From Terriglobia bacterium (GTDB lineage Bacteria; Acidobacteriota; Terriglobia; 20CM-2-55-15), in assembly GCA_965218585.1 (NCBI GenBank), contig CBDCLE010000012.1, positions 32,001 through 96,000 on the forward strand: DNA of 64,000 bases, written 5' to 3'. The translations under genes were made by a program, and so were the position numbers. This document shows, in pieces, positions 34,394 through 41,735 of the stretch. The notes beneath the pieces are model-generated. The model saw only the letters and a program-made list of their open reading frames with translations, ran no database searches and was not told the DNA's origin. Position 1 is the first letter of the stretch. Each line of letters starts with the position of its first letter.

Positions 34394-35080
34394 CCGATCT
34401 CGAGTCCGCCTTCCGCAAGATTCATCGCGAACTCAAACCACGCACCCCGGTTCCAAAAATCCAGACAGAGTTCTTCCCTTCTGTTGGCGCGAATCATTCG
34501 GCCACACTTGACGAAGGTGTTCTCCGCGTGCGGGTCAGCGATCTCTTTGCGGACGCACCCGCCGAGATCCTCGAAACGGTGGCGATTATTCTGCTGTCCA
34601 AGCTCTACCGGAAGAAGATCGACGCTGAGTACCACACCGACTACCGTCGCTACACGATGAGTACGGACATGCTCGAGCGCGGCCGTCGGGTTCGATCTGA
34701 AAGAGGTCGGCCTACTCCGACAACTGCCCCTCAGGGAAAGTGCTACGACCTCGGCACCCTCTTTGACGAGATCAACATGGAGTGTTTCTCGGGCGGACTG
34801 CGGAAACCTCAGCTCCTCATGGACCCGGAGGGAGGCCCGGACCGTTCTGGGACGTTACGACTTTGACCAGGACGTGATTTTCATCAGCCGTTTTCTGGAC
34901 TCCGACACCATTCCAGCCCATGTTGTTCGATACATCCTGTTCCACGAGATGCTTCACGTGAAGCATGGAACCGAGATCAAGGGCCTTCGTGAGATCGTTC
35001 ACACGCCGGCTTTCCGACGCGAAGAAAAGCAATTCCCCAACTACCAGTTCGCCCGCGACTGGCTGGATCATAGTACGTAG
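34390..35080 (+). CDS. SprT/YgjP-like Zn metallo-hydrolase (one frameshift)
   Basis: ORFs 34390-34866 and 34763-35080; VVRYILFHEMLH...H motif. Confidence 0.75.
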
Positions 35081-35616
35081 ATCACGCAGATCCGTGTGAT
35101 CCATGTATCCACAGAAGGGCTTTGCCCGCAAATTCGTTCCTGCCCATAAATCATCAGTTCTGCCCGAAAAACCCCACGAGTCCTCTTTATGGCTCTATGC
35201 TGAAAAGCCGCATTGGAAGATGTGGGTGGAAAAATATTGTGAAAATCCTCGCATGCGCTCTCGCCCGCATCGCAGAAGTCTTGGATCGTATCGTAGATGT
35301 GATCCAACCTAGTGTTGAATGACAGATACACGCTGGTGATCTCTTGAAGATACTGTGAGTTCAAGTCCGCTCTTCCACTCACCATCTCCAACTTTGAAAG
35401 AGTGCCTGCCCCAGCGTAGGGGTCGTAATCGGAAGAGAATGCAAAGAGCAATCCCCACGCATCTGCATCTAACTCAGGGTTCCGACTAAAGTCCTGCTTG
35501 CCGGTTTCGAAATTGGTAGACGTGACCCAGTTCGTGCCCGATGGCAAACGCAAGCTCGCTTTCGAAATCCGCGAGTAGTTCCGCTAATGCCAAACTAATT
35601 TCGACCCCGTCTCTAG

Positions 35617-37085
35617 TACTACTGTATTACAAACGAAGCGGTCCACAGAACGGACAACGAGGAAGCTGCTGAATCAGGAAGCGGGCGATGCGAATGCGAA
35701 GCGTGGCAATCGAGCAGGGGTTATGTCGTTCGGGCCGGATCCGGGGTTCCGCGGGGTTTGAAGTGTTTGGGGAGTTTGGGGACGGATAGTCCAACATGCT
35801 CGACAAATGCAGAGGGGGAAAAACGGCTCCGCTCGGCGACCAGGAACCCATAAGAGGCAATACATAAGGTGCCATGATGGTGAAATCCACGCCAGCCGCG
35901 ACCTTCGTAGTGTCCCAGACCGAGTTCCTGCTTGAGTTCCTGATAGTCGCGTTCGATGATCCAGCGCTGTTTGGCCTGACCGGCCAGATCGGAAAGCGAG
36001 GTATGGGCCCCAAGAGTGGAGAGCCAGTACCGGATCGGTTCGGATGCGGTCTTGGGCCACTCGACCAACAACCACTCTTTCGGATGCGGCGAGTGGCGCT
36101 CGTGATCCAGATGAGCGGGACGAATGCGAACTGCGGCGAAACGGGAACGCAGGGTCTCGGAGGTGCCTTCGCGCCAGGAGACGTTCTTCCAACGCTGGGG
36201 AGACAACGAGAGGGCCAGTTGCTTGACCGAAACCGGTTGATGTTTCTTGTTGCGCTGCATGCGGGTCGGTGTCCGTCCGCGGCCGGTCAAGGATTTCGGC
36301 GGCAAGGGACCCTGGCCCGGTTTCCACACGGTCGTGGTGCCTTGCACCCCTAGGACGTAGCTAAGTCCGAGTTCGGTGATGCCGTGCCGGAACTTGTAGT
36401 TGTTGCCGTAGGCCGTATCGCCCAGAACCGGTGCCGGAGCAATGCCGTCATCGACGGCCTGCCGGATTTGTTCCAAAGCAATTTGAGGTTTAGTTTGAAA
36501 TCGAACGTCTTCGGGAATAGCGGCTTTGCTTCGACGTTCCGGATCCTTCGCCCAGGTCTCGGGGAGGTAGAGTCGCCATGCCACCGGCAAGCTGGATTTC
36601 GCTGTCGCCACCGACAGGCTCACCGCCACCCGGCAGTTCTCAGGTTTGCCGACCTGTCCACAGTATTGCCGGGCCACACCCACCGAGTGGGTCCCCTTTT
36701 TCACGAATCCGGTGTCGTCGACAATCCAGGCTTCAATCGGACCGTTGGCTTCCATCGCCCCCAGCGCGTACTGTCGAACTTCTGCCAACAGAGCCGCATC
36801 GTCCCAGGGCGCATCCGCGACCAGATGATGTAGCGACTGGTGCATTCGGCGTACATTATCCGGAGCCAATCGTGCAGCCATCGGCTCCACACTCTTACGT
36901 TTGATCGGCAGCAACAACCCGGTGCAGTACGACTTCAACGGTTCATGACGATCGGCGTGTCCTGCGGCCGACGCCAGGCGTTCCAAATAGGCCGCAAAAC
37001 GTTTTTCCTGAGTGCCTGGCGCCTTCGATTTGGCGCTCATGACCGGATGCTAACATAAAATAGACCGTTTGTAACATAGTAGTAA
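35617..37085 (-). mobile_element. IS701-family element nested in the cargo gene
   Basis: Ends TACTACTGTATTACAAACG and CGTTTGTAACATAGTAGTA; TAG(T) duplicated at the flanks; near-identical copy from 63226. Confidence 0.92.
35721..37040 (-). CDS. IS701-family transposase
   Basis: RKSVEPMA, IVDDTGFVKKGTHSVGVARQYCGQVGK, GDTAYG, RWIIERDYQELKQELGL. Confidence 0.95.
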   Translation of the reverse strand: MSAKSKAPGTQEKRFAAYLERLASAAGHADRHEPLKSYCTGLLLPIKRKSVEPMAARLAPDNVRRMHQSLHHLVADAPWDDAALLAEVRQYALGAMEANGPIEAWIVDDTGFVKKGTHSVGVARQYCGQVGKPENCRVAVSLSVATAKSSLPVAWRLYLPETWAKDPERRSKAAIPEDVRFQTKPQIALEQIRQAVDDGIAPAPVLGDTAYGNNYKFRHGITELGLSYVLGVQGTTTVWKPGQGPLPPKSLTGRGRTPTRMQRNKKHQPVSVKQLALSLSPQRWKNVSWREGTSETLRSRFAAVRIRPAHLDHERHSPHPKEWLLVEWPKTASEPIRYWLSTLGAHTSLSDLAGQAKQRWIIERDYQELKQELGLGHYEGRGWRGFHHHGTLCIASYGFLVAERSRFSPSAFVEHVGLSVPKLPKHFKPRGTPDPARTT

Positions 37086-38082
37086 TAGTGGCGTAGGCGC
37101 TTATTTCCATCTCGGAAGTGACTGTGAGCTCGATGTCATTGGGATTTGGGATATTAGCGCGTACAGAATCATTGCTGACAAGCGAACGAAACACGTTCTC
37201 TATAACGTGCCGATGGGAAGCGGGCCGCGCCGCTGTACCGCTCGGCAGGGACGAATAGACGCCCCCATCGCCTCGAAGGGTCAAAGCGGAAACGTAGCCT
37301 TTTGAAGCTTGGATCAAAACGGACCCGGTGAAATCACCCGGCAAGTCGGGGATGATCTCGCTGAGCAATTTTGCGCTGTGTCCAAATCCAGGTAGTTGTA
37401 CAGATCCATGGAAGGGATTGCCACCGCCGTTCGGTAGGGCGGCAATTTGCATTGATTGTTCAAAGCTGTAGATATTAACTAAGGCAACCCCCAGATCCGG
37501 AGTAGCGGACGAAAAATATTGTGGTGCCGGCAATGATGCAGGAACACTGACCGAATAGAGTACGTTTCCGGCCTCATCCATGGAGCTGTAAGTCGCCGTG
37601 ACTTGAACGAGGTTCGATGCGTAGACGGTTGCCCATCCAACTTGAGGTACTGGACTCGTGCCTCGGCCTGGTGTACTCCAGCATTCCGAAGCGCGGGATC
37701 TCGAACTCGACTGCGTTCCAATACCCATCCTGATTATCGAAATCCAGATAGATATATTCTCCATCGTCTCCTCTGAACCAGACTGTTCCTGTCACGGCTG
37801 TGTGTTTGGATTAGCGATAGTGACTGTGGTGCGCCACCCGCCACCGTCAACGATTTGCGGGATGTAGGACCAAGCATTTGCCGACTCTGGAATGCCAAGG
37901 AAGAATGTTTGAGCCGAATTTGGGTCAGAGAGAGACACAGAAGGGCCAAAACGAGCATGAGCCGTTTCACTGGAGGTTCCTTTTTACCAGGGGAATCGGT
38001 GTTACCGGAACCATTGTTGGTCACCGGGTCGGTTGCCAGACAGAACGCACGCATGTGCGGAATCCCGCCTGTTTCCCGGTAG

Positions 38083-38526
38083 GTGTTGTATTCGGCGGGC
38101 AACCCGGTGATACAGGTCGCGCGAATGCTTCGGAAGGCCATTTCCGAACGAGCCAGAATTGACCGGAAAATTATCGTCATTCAGAACGATCTCGCCAAAC
38201 TTGCCCCACTCTGCGGTATGCCTGAAGCGCAACATCCGCTCGCTGAAATGGGCGTCACCGACGCAGTGCGAAGCATCGTCGGAGCAGCCCCTGAGAAAGG
38301 CGTTGCCACGGCTGGGGTCAGGAAGGTCTCGGCTATGTGTGGCGTGAGATTGCCAGAGTCTAACCCGTTGGCGGCGATTCAGACTGCTTTGAAGCGGCTT
38401 GAATCCAAGGGAGAAATAGAGAGGCGTGAGAGGAAATGGGTCTGGATCAGCAATACAAATCCACCCACGCAGCCGATACCGGAGTGGATGCTCAGGGATC
38501 CTGAAGAGGAAGAAACGGGGGGCTAG
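38083..38526 (+). CDS. Hypothetical coiled-coil plus putative winged-helix DNA-binding protein (start uncertain)
   Basis: 147 aa inside the transposon; heptad-like N-terminal half then GVTDAVRSIV...NPLAAIQTALKRLESKGEIERRERKWVW; fold inferred by eye. Confidence 0.6.
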   Translation: MLYSAGNPVIQVARMLRKAISERARIDRKIIVIQNDLAKLAPLCGMPEAQHPLAEMGVTDAVRSIVGAAPEKGVATAGVRKVSAMCGVRLPESNPLAAIQTALKRLESKGEIERRERKWVWISNTNPPTQPIPEWMLRDPEEEETGG

Positions 38527-38594
38527 CTCAACAGGAGAGAGCACCCGCTTCGTAAGCGGGACCGTTGCGGGTTCGAAGCCCGCGCCCCCATCCA
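38517..38594 (+). tRNA. tRNA-like cloverleaf, anticodon CGT (Thr-type) with a non-Thr, mismatched acceptor stem
   Basis: GGGGGGC TA GCTC AACAGGAGA GAGC A CCCGC TTCGTAA GCGGG ACCGTT GCGGG TTCGAAG CCCGC GCCCCCA T CCA; D, anticodon and T stems pair fully; G1:A72 mismatch; encoded CCA. Confidence 0.75.
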
Positions 38595-38602
38595 AACCGG
38601 CC

Positions 38603-38628
38603 CCGCAGGGTGGTGACACACCCTGCGG
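38603..38628 (+). other. 10-bp perfect hairpin between the tRNA-like element and the transposase
   Basis: CCGCAGGGTG-GTGACA-CACCCTGCGG; no U-tract. Confidence 0.6.
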
Positions 38629-38720
38629 AAGCCATAACCTGCAAGGCGCGTGAAGCACCCGACAGGCAGCAGAACCTCATTGTACTGCCCACGGCCCTTG
38701 CAACGCAAAGGAGATCCACC

Positions 38721-39959
38721 GTGGACGATTCCAGAAAACAACGCGCACTCGAAATCGCGGATAAGTTCAGGATCGCGTCCCAAGACGCATGTCGCTGGAT
38801 GGTTCCTTCGCAGTACGGTACTGGACGCTATTCGGTCACGATCCTCGGCCAAAACTCCCACTGCACCTGCCTGGACTGGGAGAAGCGCCGCCAGCCGTGC
38901 AAGCATGTCATGGCGGTCGAACTCTTCCGTGTGAACAGTGAGCGGATAGGAGACGCCCCGAAGGTCACAGAGGCGATCTATCACACGCCACGACCAACCT
39001 ACAAACAGGACTGGACGGCCTACAACGCAGCGCAAACCAACGAGAAGGACGAGTTTCAGATGCTTCTCTGGGGTTTGTGTCAAGGGCTGAAGCAGCCGAA
39101 GCGGACAGCCGCGGACGACCGGCGCTGCCGATTTCCGATTCGGTATTTGCAGCAGCGTTCAAGGTGTACTCCACAGTTTCCGGGCGCCGGTTCATGAGCG
39201 ACCTTCGGAACGCCAAAGCGTCGGGGGTTTCTTAACCAGCTTCCCCACTACAACTCGATCTTCGACTTGATGGACAACCCCGGATTGACTCAGATTCTTG
39301 AGAACCTGATTACGGAGTCGAGTCTTCCACTGAAATCGGTTGAGCGAGATTTCGCCGTGGATTCGTCCGGATTCTCCACCTGCCGATTCGAGCGGTGGTT
39401 CGATCACAAGCACGGCGGCGATAGGTTCAAGCGAAACTGGGTGAAGGTCCACATCATGTGCGGCGTCAAAACCAACATCGTTACCGCCGTCGAGATCCGT
39501 GGCCGCGAGGCCCACGATGCGCCGTTGCTGCCAGACATGCTGGAATCTACGGCTAAGAACTTCACGATGCACGAGGTTTCCGCCGACAAAGGCTACCTGA
39601 GCGTGAACAACGTGAAGAAGATCGTCGGTTCTGGAGCCGCTCCGTTCATCGCGCTCAAGACCAACAGCCAGCCGCAAACGTCGAGCAAGGTCTGGAATGA
39701 CATGTACTACTACTTCCAGTTGAAGCGAGACGAGTTTCTGGAGCACTACCACAAGCGCTCGAACGTCGAAACCACCTTCCACATGATTAAGTCGAAATTC
39801 AGAGACTCGCTGCGGTCAAAGACCGACCGCGCCCTGGTCAACGAAGCATTGTGTAAGATTCTTTGTCACAATCTTGTAGTCCTGGTTCATGAAGCTCACG
39901 AGCTGGGGGTCGAGCCGATTTTCTGGGCAGAAACCCCGGCTGCCCGAATAAATGCCTGA
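38721..39959 (+). CDS. DDE (IS4/IS5-superfamily-like) transposase with an N-terminal SWIM Zn finger; two compensating frameshifts
   Basis: AAGGAG RBS then GTG 38721; CTCLDWEKRRQPCKH SWIM motif; AVDSSG, SADKGY, YHKRSNVETTF; breaks near 39105 and in the G-run near 39225. Confidence 0.85.
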
Positions 39960-40193
39960 CTTATTTAGTTTTCGGGCAAAGCCCCACAGAAGCTGTGGAA
40001 AAGCCTGTGGAAAGGTCCCTGCTCCCCTTGCCTAAGCACACCTAAAGCTATCGCTTATAGCGTTTTGCACCTTTTCCTGTCACCGGCGTCACTGTTGAAA
40101 AATTCGGTAATTTTTTCGATAGAGGGAAAAATCTGCGTAGGACAGAAAAGACCAATGCAGAGACGCGGAGACGCAGAGGGAAGAAAAACCTAG

Positions 40194-41735
40194 GAGTCTG
40201 CGCGGCAGAAGGACCGAAATTGGGCGGGAATGGATGGAAGATAGGGCATGCCACGAACTTACCGAGCCTATATTCCAGAACAGAGCCTGCTGATGCCACC
40301 GTCGCTGAGCGATTGGCTGGCCGAAGATCACCTGTCGTACTTCATATCGGATGCTGTGGACGCGATGGATTTGAGCGGGTTCGAACAGAGGCATGGAACT
40401 GACGGGCCTGGCAATCAGGCCTTCGATCCGCGGATGATGGTGAAGGTGATGATCTATGGGTACGGGACCGGAGTGTTTTCATCCAGGAAGATCGCAGCGA
40501 AGTTGAGAGAAGATGTGGCGTTCCGGATGTTGGGAGCCGAGAACTTTCCCGCGCACCGAACGATCTCGGATTTTCGCAAACTGCATCTTGAGGAGTTCGG
40601 GAAGCTGTTTGTGCAAGTGGTGATGATGGCGCGAGAAGCGGGTTTGGTGAAGATGGGGACGGTAGCGGTGGACGGAACCAAGATGCGGGCGAATGCGAGC
40701 AAACGCAAAGCGATGAGCTATCAACGCATGAAGAAGCAGGAGACCGAGTTGGGTGAGCAGATTCGGGATCTGTTGAACCGGGCGACCGCGACCGATGAGG
40801 ACGAAGACCAGCGTTACGGCAAGGACCGGCGCGGAGACGAACTACCCGACGGGTTGGCGACCCGTAAGAAGCGTCTGGCCACGATCCAGGCGGCGATGAA
40901 GCGACTCGAGGAACGTCAGATGGCTGCGGACCAGGAAGCCGGACGGAAACCGGGAGACGACGAACCGGGAAGCGGAAAGAAGGGCAAGCCATTCAAACGC
41001 CCCATGGGCGAGCCCAAGCCCAAGGCCCAGGAGAACTTCACCGATCCAGAAAGCCGGATCATGAAGACCTCCACGGAAGGGTTCCAGCAATGTTACAACG
41101 CGCAGGCGATGGTGGATTCCGAGGCCCGGATCATCGTGGCGACCACGGTGAGCGACAATGCGTCGGATGTGGGGCAGTTGGAGCCGACTCTGGATGCGGT
41201 GAACAACAACCTGGGAGAGTCTCCAGGCCGCGTGCTCGCTGATGCGGGGTATCGATCCGAGTCGAATCTGGGGATGTTAGAACAACGCCAAATTGATGGG
41301 TATGTCGCCATGGGGCGGGAGAAGGACCTGGACGATGCCCCCCTCCCGCCACAAGATACCGCGCTTGGTCGGATGACGAGAAAAATGAAATCCCCGTCTG
41401 GGCGTGATCGCTACCGGGCCAGAAAGCACATTGGTGAACCGCCCTTCGGGTGGATCAAATCGGTGCTCGGATTCCGACAGTTCAGTCTGCGAGGTTTGGA
41501 CAAGGTGACCTGTGAGTGGAACCTGGTGACTCTAGCAGTGAACTTACGACGGATGAACGGGAAGATCGAATGGGCCTAATCCGGAAAACCGGGACCGCCA
41601 CCCTTATCACACGGCTTACTACTGGAGTCCGCACCGGTCTGAGTTCATCATAACGGCAGAATCGGTCCGGTCGCCTCCGACAACACGATCAAATCCCAAT
41701 AAATCCAGGTTCTTTCCGCTCTGCCGCGCAGACTC
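40194..41735 (+). mobile_element. IS1182-family insertion sequence
   Basis: 16-bp perfect IRs GAGTCTGCGCGGCAGA / TCTGCCGCGCAGACTC; CTAG duplicated at 40190-40193 and 41736-41739. Confidence 0.93.
40248..41579 (+). CDS. IS1182-family transposase
   Basis: FDPRMMVKVMIYGY, SSRKI, PAHRTISDFR, VDGTKMRANAS, NFTDPESRIM, LADAGY, EPPFGWIK. Confidence 0.93.
   Translation: MPRTYRAYIPEQSLLMPPSLSDWLAEDHLSYFISDAVDAMDLSGFEQRHGTDGPGNQAFDPRMMVKVMIYGYGTGVFSSRKIAAKLREDVAFRMLGAENFPAHRTISDFRKLHLEEFGKLFVQVVMMAREAGLVKMGTVAVDGTKMRANASKRKAMSYQRMKKQETELGEQIRDLLNRATATDEDEDQRYGKDRRGDELPDGLATRKKRLATIQAAMKRLEERQMAADQEAGRKPGDDEPGSGKKGKPFKRPMGEPKPKAQENFTDPESRIMKTSTEGFQQCYNAQAMVDSEARIIVATTVSDNASDVGQLEPTLDAVNNNLGESPGRVLADAGYRSESNLGMLEQRQIDGYVAMGREKDLDDAPLPPQDTALGRMTRKMKSPSGRDRYRARKHIGEPPFGWIKSVLGFRQFSLRGLDKVTCEWNLVTLAVNLRRMNGKIEWA

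Follow-up and report, generated by a model that had tools for sequence, protein, structure and literature searches.

Organization of the locus

The window, that is, the whole stretch of 64,000 nucleotides analysed here, contains at positions 35118–39983 what is most probably a cargo transposon of 4866 bp (~4.9 kb). The features of the element and its borders, with the strand where one applies, are as follows.

35109–35117: target-site duplication, left copy CCACAGAAG; present as a single copy at the empty sites of related genomes
35118–35134, plus: left terminal inverted repeat, beginning GGCTTTGCCCG (sequence and repeat search); its GGCTTTG start is common to 55 of 77 related loci
35123–35170, plus: three direct TGCCCRNAAA repeats at 35123, 35141 and 35161 (motif scan), putative transposase-binding sites
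35200–35617, minus: peptidase gene, 3' part (stop approximate), 89% identical to residues 358–453 of the homolog P0160
35618–37091, minus: nested IS701-family insertion sequence, splitting the peptidase gene (NF033540, PF13546, inverted repeats)
37092–37958, minus: peptidase gene, 5' part, of which 189 aa align with P0160 at 86% identity
38002–38110: long, imperfect hairpin repeat between the divergent genes; matches sRNA-Xcc1 below threshold (32.7 bits; gathering score 53)
38083–38526, plus: small ORF of 147 aa; coiled coil at the N terminus, possibly a winged helix at the C terminus
38517–38590, plus: tRNA-Thr, anticodon CGU (ARAGORN, Rfam)
38603–38628, plus: 10-bp hairpin 3' of the tRNA, with no U-tract (fold search)
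38629–38720, plus: conserved transposase leader, in which AAGGAG precedes a GTG start (sequence read)
38721–39959, plus: transposase with SWIM zinc finger and DDE_Tnp_1 domain, 412 aa once two assembly indels are removed
39920–39978, minus: inverted TGCCCRNAAA repeats of the right end, at 39920 and 39969 (motif scan)
39967–39983, minus: right terminal inverted repeat (sequence and repeat search)
39984–39992: target-site duplication, right copy CCACAGAAG; with the flank it makes the palindrome CCACAG-AAG-CTGTGG

Element ends and target site

The element is enclosed by inverted repeats that start GGCTTTG and by a perfect duplication of 9 bp, which bears out the clean ends described in a first-pass annotation of this DNA. 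The left end opens at 35118 with GGCTTTGCCCGCAAAT and the right end closes at 39983 with TTTTCGGGCAAAGCC; in a repeat search of the window, the arms at 35117–35132 and 39969–39984 were 94% complementary over 16 nt. Copies of the TGCCC..AAA motif noted earlier do lie inside the ends. Seven matches to TGCCCRNAAA are present in the 64-kb window, where 1.14 would be expected, a count reached in none of 100 shuffles, and five of the seven are those at the element ends. The offsets of the repeat cores (4/22/42) are found again in 18 of 54 relatives, and the repeats are likely transposase-binding sites. The insertion point is a conserved intergenic palindrome, CCACAG-N3-CTGTGG, with a YgjP/SprT-like gene on one side and hflX on the other.

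The transposase and its family

The transposase joins a SWIM zinc finger (33.3 bits) to a DDE_Tnp_1 domain (96.3 bits). Its frame, previously thought to need repair, is broken by homopolymer assembly errors and not by real frameshifts: public contigs add a G after 39107 and remove one base at 39223, and relative to the intact 412-aa transposase P0001 the window only lacks one G and has another in excess. By the same evidence, single-base indels in the peptidase gene (35230 and 35505 in the 3' part; 37667, 37795 and 37916 in the 5' part) are assembly errors, and an extra C after 38584, seen in four of four runs, gives the tRNA a perfect acceptor stem and A73. The contigs on which these repairs are based may share their sample of origin with the assembly, and so are not fully independent of it.

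A search of 6499 candidates returned 5269 relatives of the transposase at E ≤ 0.001, from bacteria and from archaeal assemblies. Fifty-five of 77 related loci were delimited by (G/A)GCTTTG ends and an exact duplication of 8–10 bp (9 bp in 52), and 22 could not be delimited. Bounding homologous elements by their repeats and duplications and cataloguing their cargo had been proposed in the first-pass annotation; the delimited elements measure 2261–8105 bp (median 4594), and all 55 have passengers. These are often restriction-modification genes; among 140 passenger ORFs, N6_Mtase was found nine times, Eco57I seven and Peptidase_M78 four, and PADLOC models of restriction-modification methyltransferases were matched. 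Relatives often stand in tandem arrays with one common duplication. The blastn alignment with the related locus L095 begins at 38569 and runs at 81.6% identity over 1390 nt.

The peptidase gene and the nested IS701

The leftward passenger has a signal-peptide-like start near 37958, followed by an N-terminal domain. Its homolog P0160 carries PF01435, and an HELGH motif was read by eye in its 3' part. The gene would encode a secreted-type M48-like metallopeptidase, as the earlier label of secreted peptidase had it, an assignment made only through homologs and a motif. The gene is split by the IS701-family element proposed at the outset, whose transposase (35721–37040, minus strand) matches NF033540 with 434.7 bits as well as PF13546. 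Its inverted repeats lie at 35608–35635 and 37066–37093, a variant public contig skips 35618–37091 altogether, and 23 near-full copies are present in the genome.

Empty sites and mobility

Two signs of mobility had been proposed, empty sites and circular forms. The first was found in related genomes that do not have the element and carry one copy of the target. All four genomes of the same genus are without an element end here, and in two of them the flanks lie ~68 nt apart with the target present once. Of 16 further genomes of the bacterial family in which the left-flank gene is present, G026 is the only one with an element at the site, and the four other genomes of its genus are without it. 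The empty sites retain one clean target copy and no excision footprint. As for the second sign, neither an excision nor a circle junction is listed in the public contigs. The element, present once in its own genome, is intact and probably still mobile.

The ORF-tRNA module

Between the peptidase gene and the transposase lie a small ORF and a tRNA gene, preceded by a hairpin repeat (38002–38110) of which the genome has five other, partial copies. The ORF matches none of the Pfam, PADLOC or PHROG families; it is a member of a rare and uncharacterised family whose genes are linked to tRNAs lying downstream. It had been called a winged-helix protein and the element's own regulator: the coiled coil is accompanied by a possible but weakly supported winged helix, and the regulatory role is unsupported. 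The RNA, described earlier as tRNA-like, is instead a genuine tRNA gene, called tRNA-Thr(cgt) by ARAGORN at 38517–38594 and scoring 47.5 bits against an Rfam gathering score of 29. It is a divergent copy; a second, unrelated tRNA-Thr(CGT) is encoded in the same genome at C24.

The first-pass annotation had asked whether the ORF and the RNA recur in front of the transposase; in the closest relatives (L095, L096, L008/L009, L022 and L011), the ORF and a tRNA do stand immediately before it. Across the family the arrangement is uncommon: only 12 of 82 loci have a same-strand tRNA in the 700 nt upstream of the transposase, and the ORF family occurs in only seven, each time (7/7) with a same-strand tRNA directly after it. 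Where the module is present, it always sits in one place and orientation shortly before the transposase, which could point to a role in transposase expression and not to pure cargo.

The module tRNAs fold as cloverleaves with 93.9% of cells paired and compensatory changes at 20 of 21 pairs, a result equalled by none of 500 shuffles. Those of the relatives mostly have a long variable arm and varied anticodons, much like the allo-tRNAs published from Acidobacteria, whereas the window tRNA is class I and at most 57% identical to 18 other module tRNAs. The small ORF shares only 28% identity with its counterpart in the closest element, and its homology is seen with phmmer run both ways (E values of 2.9e-6 and 3.8e-6) and with a profile (3.4e-44). 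Because the tRNAs are so divergent and the ORFs only 28% identical, the case for homology of the whole module comes from the ORF.

Interpretation and alternative readings

We consider it probable, at roughly 80%, that 35118–39983 is an intact, probably mobile, non-composite cargo transposon whose ORF-tRNA pair is a passenger and not part of the transposition machinery. The clean ends, the target duplication and the empty site agree with the single-transposase transporter proposed earlier. A single IS5-like DDE transposase with an N-terminal SWIM finger would recognise the GGCTTTG termini and two subterminal repeats per end, and insertion would proceed by a 9-bp staggered cut, the DNA between the ends moving along. 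One passenger would be the gene for the secreted M48-type peptidase, split later by IS701; the other would be the gene for the coiled-coil, winged-helix-like protein, followed by the tRNA-Thr(CGU) gene and the hairpin. In this second passenger the tRNA may be an accessory one, or one that alters decoding, and the protein its partner.

An unlikely alternative takes the ORF, tRNA and hairpin as a module for expression and control of the transposase: transcription starting at an ORF or tRNA promoter would read through the weak hairpin, processing of the tRNA by RNase P/Z would make the 5' end of the transposase mRNA, and the winged-helix-like protein would repress or license transposition. Where ORF, tRNA and transposase occur together, their strand and order are constant and the gaps short, with 126–142 nt from tRNA end to transposase start in the window, L095, L096, L033, L074 and L011, and ~290 nt in L008 and L026. 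The hairpin without a U-tract keeps its place in L095 and L096 with a changed sequence, the transposase leader is well conserved, and the tRNA class differs at the same spot between the window and L095, as if any tRNA sufficed. However, 70 of 82 transposase loci lack a tRNA upstream, so the family needs none. In 401 genomes of the phylum the ORF was found at 26 loci, 10 of them with a tRNA after it and seven with this transposase after it; of 26 ORF loci from metagenomes, 14 have the tRNA and only one the transposase, many of these contigs being short. Since the pair also occurs without this transposase, it behaves as a passenger module and not as a core part of the transposon. A scan of the plus strand, albeit crude, predicted no sigma-70-like promoter.

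Far less probable is that the tRNA-shaped RNA serves as a guide, its anticodon or variable arm picking the target or donor in the manner of IS110 bridge RNAs. Its fixed position, the anticodon-arm sequences that vary among relatives with compensatory stem changes, and the re-use of sites (the same site in two genera; the tandem arrays) would suit such a role. Yet in eight of eight elements the longest word shared or complementary between tRNA core and reconstructed target was no better than with shuffled targets, and the RNAs exceed the Rfam tRNA gathering score and retain tRNA T-loops. Most family members, arrays included, have no such RNA, and the module exists apart from the transposase; the guide reading can be regarded as already weakly refuted.

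Equally improbable is an ancient, vertically fixed insertion, in which the G026 element would be an orthologous copy and the transposase domesticated. The two elements, in different genera, share site, orientation and orthologous duplicated 9-mers, and their transposases (81.6% nt) are more conserved than the flanks (65–74% nt). Against this stand the eight element-free genomes of the two genera, the clean empty sites, the perfect ends and duplication, and cargo that is unlike (4866 versus 2801 bp, with different tRNA classes besides the divergent ORFs).

The least credible reading is a one-off capture of native tRNA, ORF and peptidase genes between a solo end and an ordinary IS, the 9-mer match being coincidental: the element is single-copy in a search of its own genome, and its tRNA and peptidase resemble ordinary host genes, but relatives lack the whole 4.87 kb and have one 9-mer copy, reading of the element sequence revealed no internal left end beside the transposase, every delimited relative, down to the smallest, holds extra DNA, the genome's other tRNA-Thr(CGT) is unrelated, and 400 other phylum genomes hold no close copy of the tRNA (best match 80%).

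Comparison with known systems

The cargo transposon shares its DDE_Tnp_1 catalytic domain with the IS903 group of the IS5 family (IS903, ISSpu16, ISVa2, IS17). The top NCBIfam match of the transposase is an IS5 model, with a score of 114.4 that lies below the curated equivalog cut-off of 140, and its identity to named IS5-like transposases is 24–27%. The GGCTTTG termini presumably resemble the start of the IS903 repeat; ISSpu16 ends begin GGCGTTG. The element can accordingly be described as having an IS5-like transposase, ends in the style of IS903 and a duplication of 9 bp, and its family is large and little described. Unlike the IS903 group (~1.06 kb), the elements here measure 2.3–8.1 kb and carry passenger genes, have three repeat copies per end, frequently form tandem arrays with one common duplication, and encode a transposase (412 aa) to which the SWIM finger adds ~100 N-terminal residues. 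A SWIM zinc finger is combined with a DDE transposase in eukaryotic MULE/MuDR-type transposases as well; the catalytic domain here is DDE_Tnp_1, of the IS4/IS5 type, and the SWIM finger is N-terminal. Transporter insertion sequences (tIS) and unit transposons likewise rely on a single transposase, are bounded by terminal inverted repeats and a target duplication, and enclose unrelated passenger genes.

A 9-bp target duplication is also described for IS903/Tn602 in the part of PMC9282650 available to us. The first-pass annotation had not recognised the family; with its IS5-like transposase and IS903-style ends it is not entirely foreign, and our literature search found no description of such a SWIM-DDE group ('SWIM' and 'passenger' are absent from PMC13343696). 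According to the available portion of a 2019 survey, no passenger-carrying transposons were detected in archaea (PMC6563490), whereas members of the SWIM-DDE family do occur in archaeal assemblies.

An odd tRNA next to a transposon-related ORF has a precedent in Acidobacteria. Mukai et al. 2017, as far as the accessible text goes, describe extra allo-tRNAs that combine long variable arms with many non-cognate anticodons; one allo-tRNA overlaps a 'transposon-related protein' ORF and others lie near toxin-antitoxin genes (PMC5389517). The small ORF family is not named in that portion of the text. The allo-tRNAs and the module tRNAs have their prominent types in common, namely UAU, GUC, Leu and UAA-reading ones. 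The allo-tRNAs are defined there by 8/4 or 9/3 acceptor/T-stems, whereas the module RNAs fit the canonical 7/5 (99.2% of acceptor and 96.8% of T-stem cells paired), and the window tRNA, in contrast to allo-tRNAs, is an ordinary-looking class I tRNA-Thr(CGU).

A cargo transposon with one transposase

The SWIM-DDE element occupies 4866 bp (35118-39983), its left end reading GGCTTTGCCCGCAAAT and its right end terminating in TTTTCGGGCAAAGCC by direct reading, and a repeat search of the window returned terminal inverted-repeat arms of 16 nt that are 94% complementary. The 9-mer CCACAGAAG flanks both ends as a target duplication (35109-35117 and 39984-39992). The motif TGCCCRNAAA has seven copies across the 64-kb window (1.14 expected). 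Five of them lie in the terminal 53-64 nt of the element, where the left end has three in direct and the right end two in inverted orientation. The features between the ends are:

~35200-35617 and 37092-37958, minus strand: putative peptidase gene in two halves, split by an IS701-family element
35721..37040, minus strand: transposase of the nested IS701 (NF033540, 434.7 bits against a cut-off of 150; PF13546, DDE_5, 286 bits)
38002-38110: imperfect long hairpin repeat with a sub-threshold Rfam match
38083..38526, plus strand: small ORF, 147 aa
38517-38590, plus strand: tRNA-Thr(cgt) (ARAGORN; Rfam tRNA)
38603-38628, plus strand: 10-bp hairpin without a U-tract
38721..39959, plus strand: transposase with a SWIM zinc finger and DDE_Tnp_1

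One transposase, inverted repeats and a duplication around unrelated genes, together with an empty site in relatives, bear out the first-pass annotation of a single-transposase cargo transposon; the element is a real transposon of this kind, and the finding reaches further than that annotation could see. No sigma-70-like promoter was predicted on the plus strand of 37900-40050, and neither whole-element excision nor an empty-site or circle joint was found among the joints listed in the contigs of four public runs. To the right of the transposon, after 200 nt, comes an IS1182-family element (40195-41650) with nine full copies in the genome at 99.9% identity or more. For the nested IS701 (35618-37091) the count is 23 near-full copies, at 99.5% or more. 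Both are multiplying in the source genome, where the SWIM element is single-copy.

The product of the leftward gene shares 86% identity with P0160, a 460-aa homolog, over 189 N-terminal aa, and its C-terminal piece is 89% identical to residues 358-453 of the same protein. P0160 matches Peptidase_M48 (PF01435, 32.9 bits against a cut-off of 20.3), whereas the window fragments themselves have no Pfam match. A HELGH motif on the minus strand near 35540 and a signal-peptide-like start were read by eye. The identity to P0160, the M48 domain of that protein and the HELGH motif make the earlier label of ‘secreted peptidase’ a reasonable prediction, reached through the homolog rather than by a direct match. 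To the right of this gene, the ~100-nt hairpin at 38002-38110 scores 32.7 bits against sRNA-Xcc1 (RF02221), for which the gathering score is 53, and has five partial copies elsewhere in the genome (53-113 nt, 72-81% identical). The sub-threshold score and the dispersed copies led us to reject an integron attC cassette site.

Apparent frameshifts are assembly errors

The first-pass annotation had proposed a repair of the transposase frame. The breaks are present in the assembly, but the true gene needs no repair: P0001, the intact 412-aa database form, equals the window’s reading save for a 40-codon stretch in another frame, and the two differ by one missing G and one extra G, each in a G-run. 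Logan contigs of four public runs were aligned to 34900-40300; those of run X1 carry an added G after 39107 and lack one base at 39223, and all four runs carry an added C after 38584. The window and the public short-read contigs also disagree by single bases in homopolymers at 35230, 35505, 37667, 37795 and 37916. These contigs possibly derive from the same sample as the assembly, and their independence is incomplete. The assembly seems to carry systematic homopolymer indel errors that produce false frameshifts. The transposase gene thus has an unbroken frame, and IS701 is the sole interruption of the leftward gene; the intact P0001 and the public-contig corrections rule out a transposase pseudogene. 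A ~90%-identical variant contig (runs X1 and X2) joins 35617 to 37092, giving the peptidase gene without IS701. The element is small and complete, consisting of two ends and one 412-aa protein, and hence amenable to a direct transposition assay.

A family of cargo transposons that form arrays

The catalytic domain of the transposase matches PF01609 (DDE_Tnp_1) at 96.3 bits, against a cut-off of 23. A search with its C-terminal 230 aa gave 5269 proteins at E<=0.001, out of 6499 longer candidates. Most of these relatives measure ~405-420 aa, carry PF01609 and often PF04434, and are named merely ‘transposase’. A scan of species-representative genomes yielded 77 transposase loci in Acidobacteriota (mainly Pyrinomonadaceae), Planctomycetota, Eremiobacterota-type and Chloroflexota genomes, and several archaeal assemblies. 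By a rule that asked for an 8-10-bp duplication without mismatch and for 13 or more of 18 terminal bases matching, 55 of the 77 could be delimited, all with (G/A)GCTTTG ends and 52 with a duplication of 9 bp. These relatives measure 2261-8105 bp (median 4594), none being a plain ~1.4-kb insertion sequence, and passenger DNA flanks the transposase on one side or on both. In 18 of 54 elements, copies of the repeat core stand at offsets of 4/22/42 from an end, matching the spacing in the window element.

The passengers comprise 223 non-overlapping ORFs of at least 80 aa, and the Pfam scan took the 140 of at least 130 aa. The commonest families among these 140 were N6_Mtase (9), Eco57I (7), UPF0020 (5), Peptidase_M78 (4) and HTH_3 (4), and PADLOC models for restriction-modification methyltransferases matched up to 9-13 of them.

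Family members also accumulate side by side. At least two transposase matches are present in 18 of the 77 loci, and 20 of 54 delimited elements adjoin the end of another element across an identical 9-mer (15 on the left, 9 on the right). Tandem arrays of three or more members, with an identical 9-bp duplication between each, occur at five loci (L011, L020, L026, L030 and L069), and L026 also holds 99-bp miniature elements made of two ends joined end-to-end. By the shared 9-mers between abutting elements, new copies tend to go in precisely at the duplication next to a resident one. At L096 (genome G001, contig C9), two members stand in tandem with a common duplication, GAATCCGCT: the larger (6.6 kb) has an intact SWIM-DDE-family transposase and a 510-aa ORF, and the smaller (2.2 kb) a broken transposase, an intact-looking tRNA with anticodon TAC and ORF remnants. 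A very abundant group annotated just as ‘transposase’ drives true cargo transposons, in soil Acidobacteriota and Planctomycetota as well as in several archaeal lineages; these transposons carry restriction-modification and other accessory genes and stack in arrays.

On a quick tree of 81 transposases, sequences from bacterial and archaeal assemblies are intermingled on very short branches; a Korobacteraceae member (L057), for example, groups with two from Methanomicrobia (L061 and L063). Since the archaeal members are from metagenome bins, some may be mis-binned, and the intermixed branches reflect either recent cross-domain transfer or mixed bins.

The insertion site

The element lies between a YgjP/SprT-like gene on the left and IS1182, hflX and miaA on the right. 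The left-flank gene is present in 16 other genomes of the family. None of the four same-genus genomes has an element end at the site: in two the flanks are ~68 nt apart with one copy of CCACAGAA(C/G)TTGTGG, and the remaining two have 170-240 nt of different spacer. In G026, a genome of another genus, a related element of 2801 bp (L095) sits at the exact orthologous position, and its duplication, GCACAGTAA, immediately precedes the same CTGTGGAAAA as in the window. The element is absent from the site in the four genus-mates of G026, and the transposase genes of the window and L095 are 81.6% identical in DNA, against 65-74% for the flanks. We read the two elements as independent insertions into a conserved palindrome, and not as a single old insertion shared by the two genomes. 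The word CCACAG-N3-CTGTGG occurs twice in the whole 4.55-Mb genome.

The target region CCACAGAAG-CTGTGGAAAAG-CCTGTGGAAAGG (window 39984-40030; L129-L141 in relatives) is kept across at least four genera as a convergent intergenic spacer. A replication origin, prompted by DnaA-box-like TGTGGAAA words, was rejected, there being no GC-skew switch across the contig and no box cluster at the site. Elsewhere in the family, seven loci in different genomes (L013, L025, L032, L036, L039, L072 and L044) share a ~20-nt palindromic sequence, ATAATATGTATTATCAGAC, just outside the right duplication, their 9-mers being different, and a second group (L035, L064 and L016) shares another of ~20 nt, GATACTTGGTTACC, outside the right duplication. 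Such sequences may mark either a favoured insertion target or the terminus of another element.

A small ORF paired with a tRNA

The 147-aa ORF has no family in Pfam, NCBIfam, PADLOC or PHROG. Against the PDB, the N-terminal part of its profile matches coiled coils only, and the C-terminal part reaches the winged-helix proteins MecI, MarR and F-112 only at E 0.4-1; the Atlas leads, HARE-HTH (0.88) and AbiEi_4 (0.85), are both below 0.9. The family is rare, with 39 clusters, none annotated, in a collection of 5.8 billion proteins, and it is present in 22 of 401 genomes of the phylum.

Among 82 transposase sources the ORF family was found in seven (the window, L095, L096, L011, L008, L009 and L022), and in all seven the ORF is directly followed by a tRNA; in L011 the pair lies in a neighbouring element, which has its own transposase. 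Of 26 ORF loci in the phylum, the window’s own excluded, ten have a same-strand tRNA just downstream, and seven of the 26 are followed by the SWIM transposase. A further 26 metagenome loci, many on short contigs, gave a downstream tRNA in 14 and a transposase in one. The occurrence of ORF-tRNA pairs without a transposase indicates that the pair is a conserved unit of which the transposon is one vehicle. The source genome also holds a second, distant copy of the ORF (L124, contig C22:178015-178663), with a 91-nt tRNA-like RNA (ARAGORN ‘Ala tgc’) ~170 nt downstream and no SWIM transposase within 1.5 kb.

The first-pass annotation had seen a tRNA-like cloverleaf, and both the Rfam score (RF00005, 47.5 bits; gathering score 29) and ARAGORN, which calls Thr(cgt), predict a genuine tRNA. 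As assembled it reads G1.A72, a mismatch that vanishes with the extra C after 38584, which gives G1-C72 and A73; as reasoned from the sequence, the corrected acceptor stem is GGGGGGC/GCCCCCC, followed by A73, with CCA not encoded. Of the 51 tRNA genes in the source genome, two are tRNA-Thr(CGT); the second, on contig C24, is unrelated in sequence to that of the element. No tRNA more than 80% identical to that of the window was found in 400 other genomes of the phylum.

With ARAGORN, 9 of 78 stretches had a tRNA on the strand of the transposase and no more than 700 nt upstream of it; the opposite strand had none. A covariance model built from seven of these nine gave 26 matches in the 82 sources, 12 of them upstream on the same strand. 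As these upstream stretches hold 2.9% of all strand-bases searched, chance alone would put ~0.75 matches there against the 12 observed, although related loci are not independent. Two adjacent model matches in L035 (8170-8357) lie within its right-hand cargo, on the strand opposite the transposase. Across 19 module RNAs, 93.9% of cells pair, 20 of 21 pairs change on both sides and none of 500 shuffles was as good, in an alignment whose fitting to the cloverleaf model favours this result. Compensatory differences are also present in the anticodon stem between the L095 and L096 tRNAs, and four of five tested relatives’ RNAs exceed the Rfam tRNA threshold.

Most module RNAs are 85-102 nt with a long variable arm, and in most of the 20 listed a G and then CC follow the acceptor stem, as read by eye. 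ARAGORN assigned the anticodons TAT, TAC, GTA, TTA, CCA, TAA, TGC, GCA, GTC, TTG and GTT, and CAA was read from the loop sequence in L106. The window tRNA is the exception, a class I Thr(CGU) tRNA at most 57% identical to the others.

What the module may do

We suggest tentatively, at a probability of about 0.3, that the non-standard tRNA and the coiled-coil/winged-helix-like protein encoded ahead of it make up a two-gene system of their own, hitch-hiking on cross-domain SWIM-DDE cargo transposons that home to junctions beside resident copies and so build cassette-like arrays. The tRNA might be recoding, mistranslating or otherwise toxic, and be checked by its partner or work with it, in addiction, defence or counter-defence. 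If true, this would supply both a partner protein and a genetic setting for the acidobacterial ‘odd tRNAs’, whose function has been unexplained since 2017. The tie between a rare unannotated protein family and extra tRNA genes with unusual anticodons makes their role near mobile elements testable.

Alternatively, the module may drive or control expression of the transposase, a reading to which the fixed ORF-tRNA-transposase order, a short conserved leader and the weak hairpin all point. A module required by the transposon family was rejected: recurrence upstream of the transposase, which the first-pass annotation had put forward as a check, holds in part, with the ORF in seven and the tRNA in 12 of 82 sources, but the other 70 have no upstream tRNA. 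On the quick transposase tree the module does not cluster significantly (73 and 99 of 500 shuffles gave values as low). Two other roles for the tRNA found no support. Against a tRNA that serves codons of the element’s own genes, the transposases of 10 elements show no enrichment of the cognate codon and no in-frame stops, the two elements with UAA-reading anticodons included, and the complementarity to insertion targets expected of a guide RNA is no better than chance in eight of eight elements.

Comparison with known systems

The best NCBIfam model for the transposase is IS5 (NF033579), at 114.4 bits under a curated equivalog cut-off of 140, and its nearest plasmid-encoded relatives are named IS5-like elements at 24-27% identity. 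The terminal repeat of IS903 begins GGCTTTG. The element resembles IS5/IS903 in its DDE_Tnp_1 domain, 9-bp duplication and GGC-type terminal repeats; it differs in measuring 4866 bp with passengers, whereas those are compact, transposase-only elements of ~1-1.5 kb. Target duplications of 9 bp are described for IS903/Tn602 in the relevant section of one account (PMC9282650). According to a 2019 survey, no passenger-carrying transposons had been detected in archaea (PMC6563490). Our literature searches turned up no account of prokaryotic insertion sequences that bear a SWIM domain and carry passengers. The element is an IS5/IS903-like DDE transposon with a SWIM finger, obligatory cargo, array formation and a recurrent ORF-tRNA passenger module.

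The module tRNAs of the relatives recall the acidobacterial allo-tRNAs of Mukai et al. (2017), which, in the sections of that paper available here, carry long variable arms and cover 35 codons with their anticodons, UAU, GCG and GUC being commonest and Leu, Arg and UAA-reading types also occurring (PMC5389517). The same sections place one allo-tRNA pseudogene over a ‘transposon-related protein’ ORF and others near toxin-antitoxin genes, and propose roles as suppressors or regulatory RNAs (PMC5389517). As far as those sections go, the relatives’ module tRNAs are alike in anticodon spectrum and genomic context; the allo-tRNAs have 8/4 or 9/3 acceptor/T-stems, whereas 19 of 19 module RNAs fit the canonical 7/5 form, in an alignment fitted to a 7/5 model, which favours that form.
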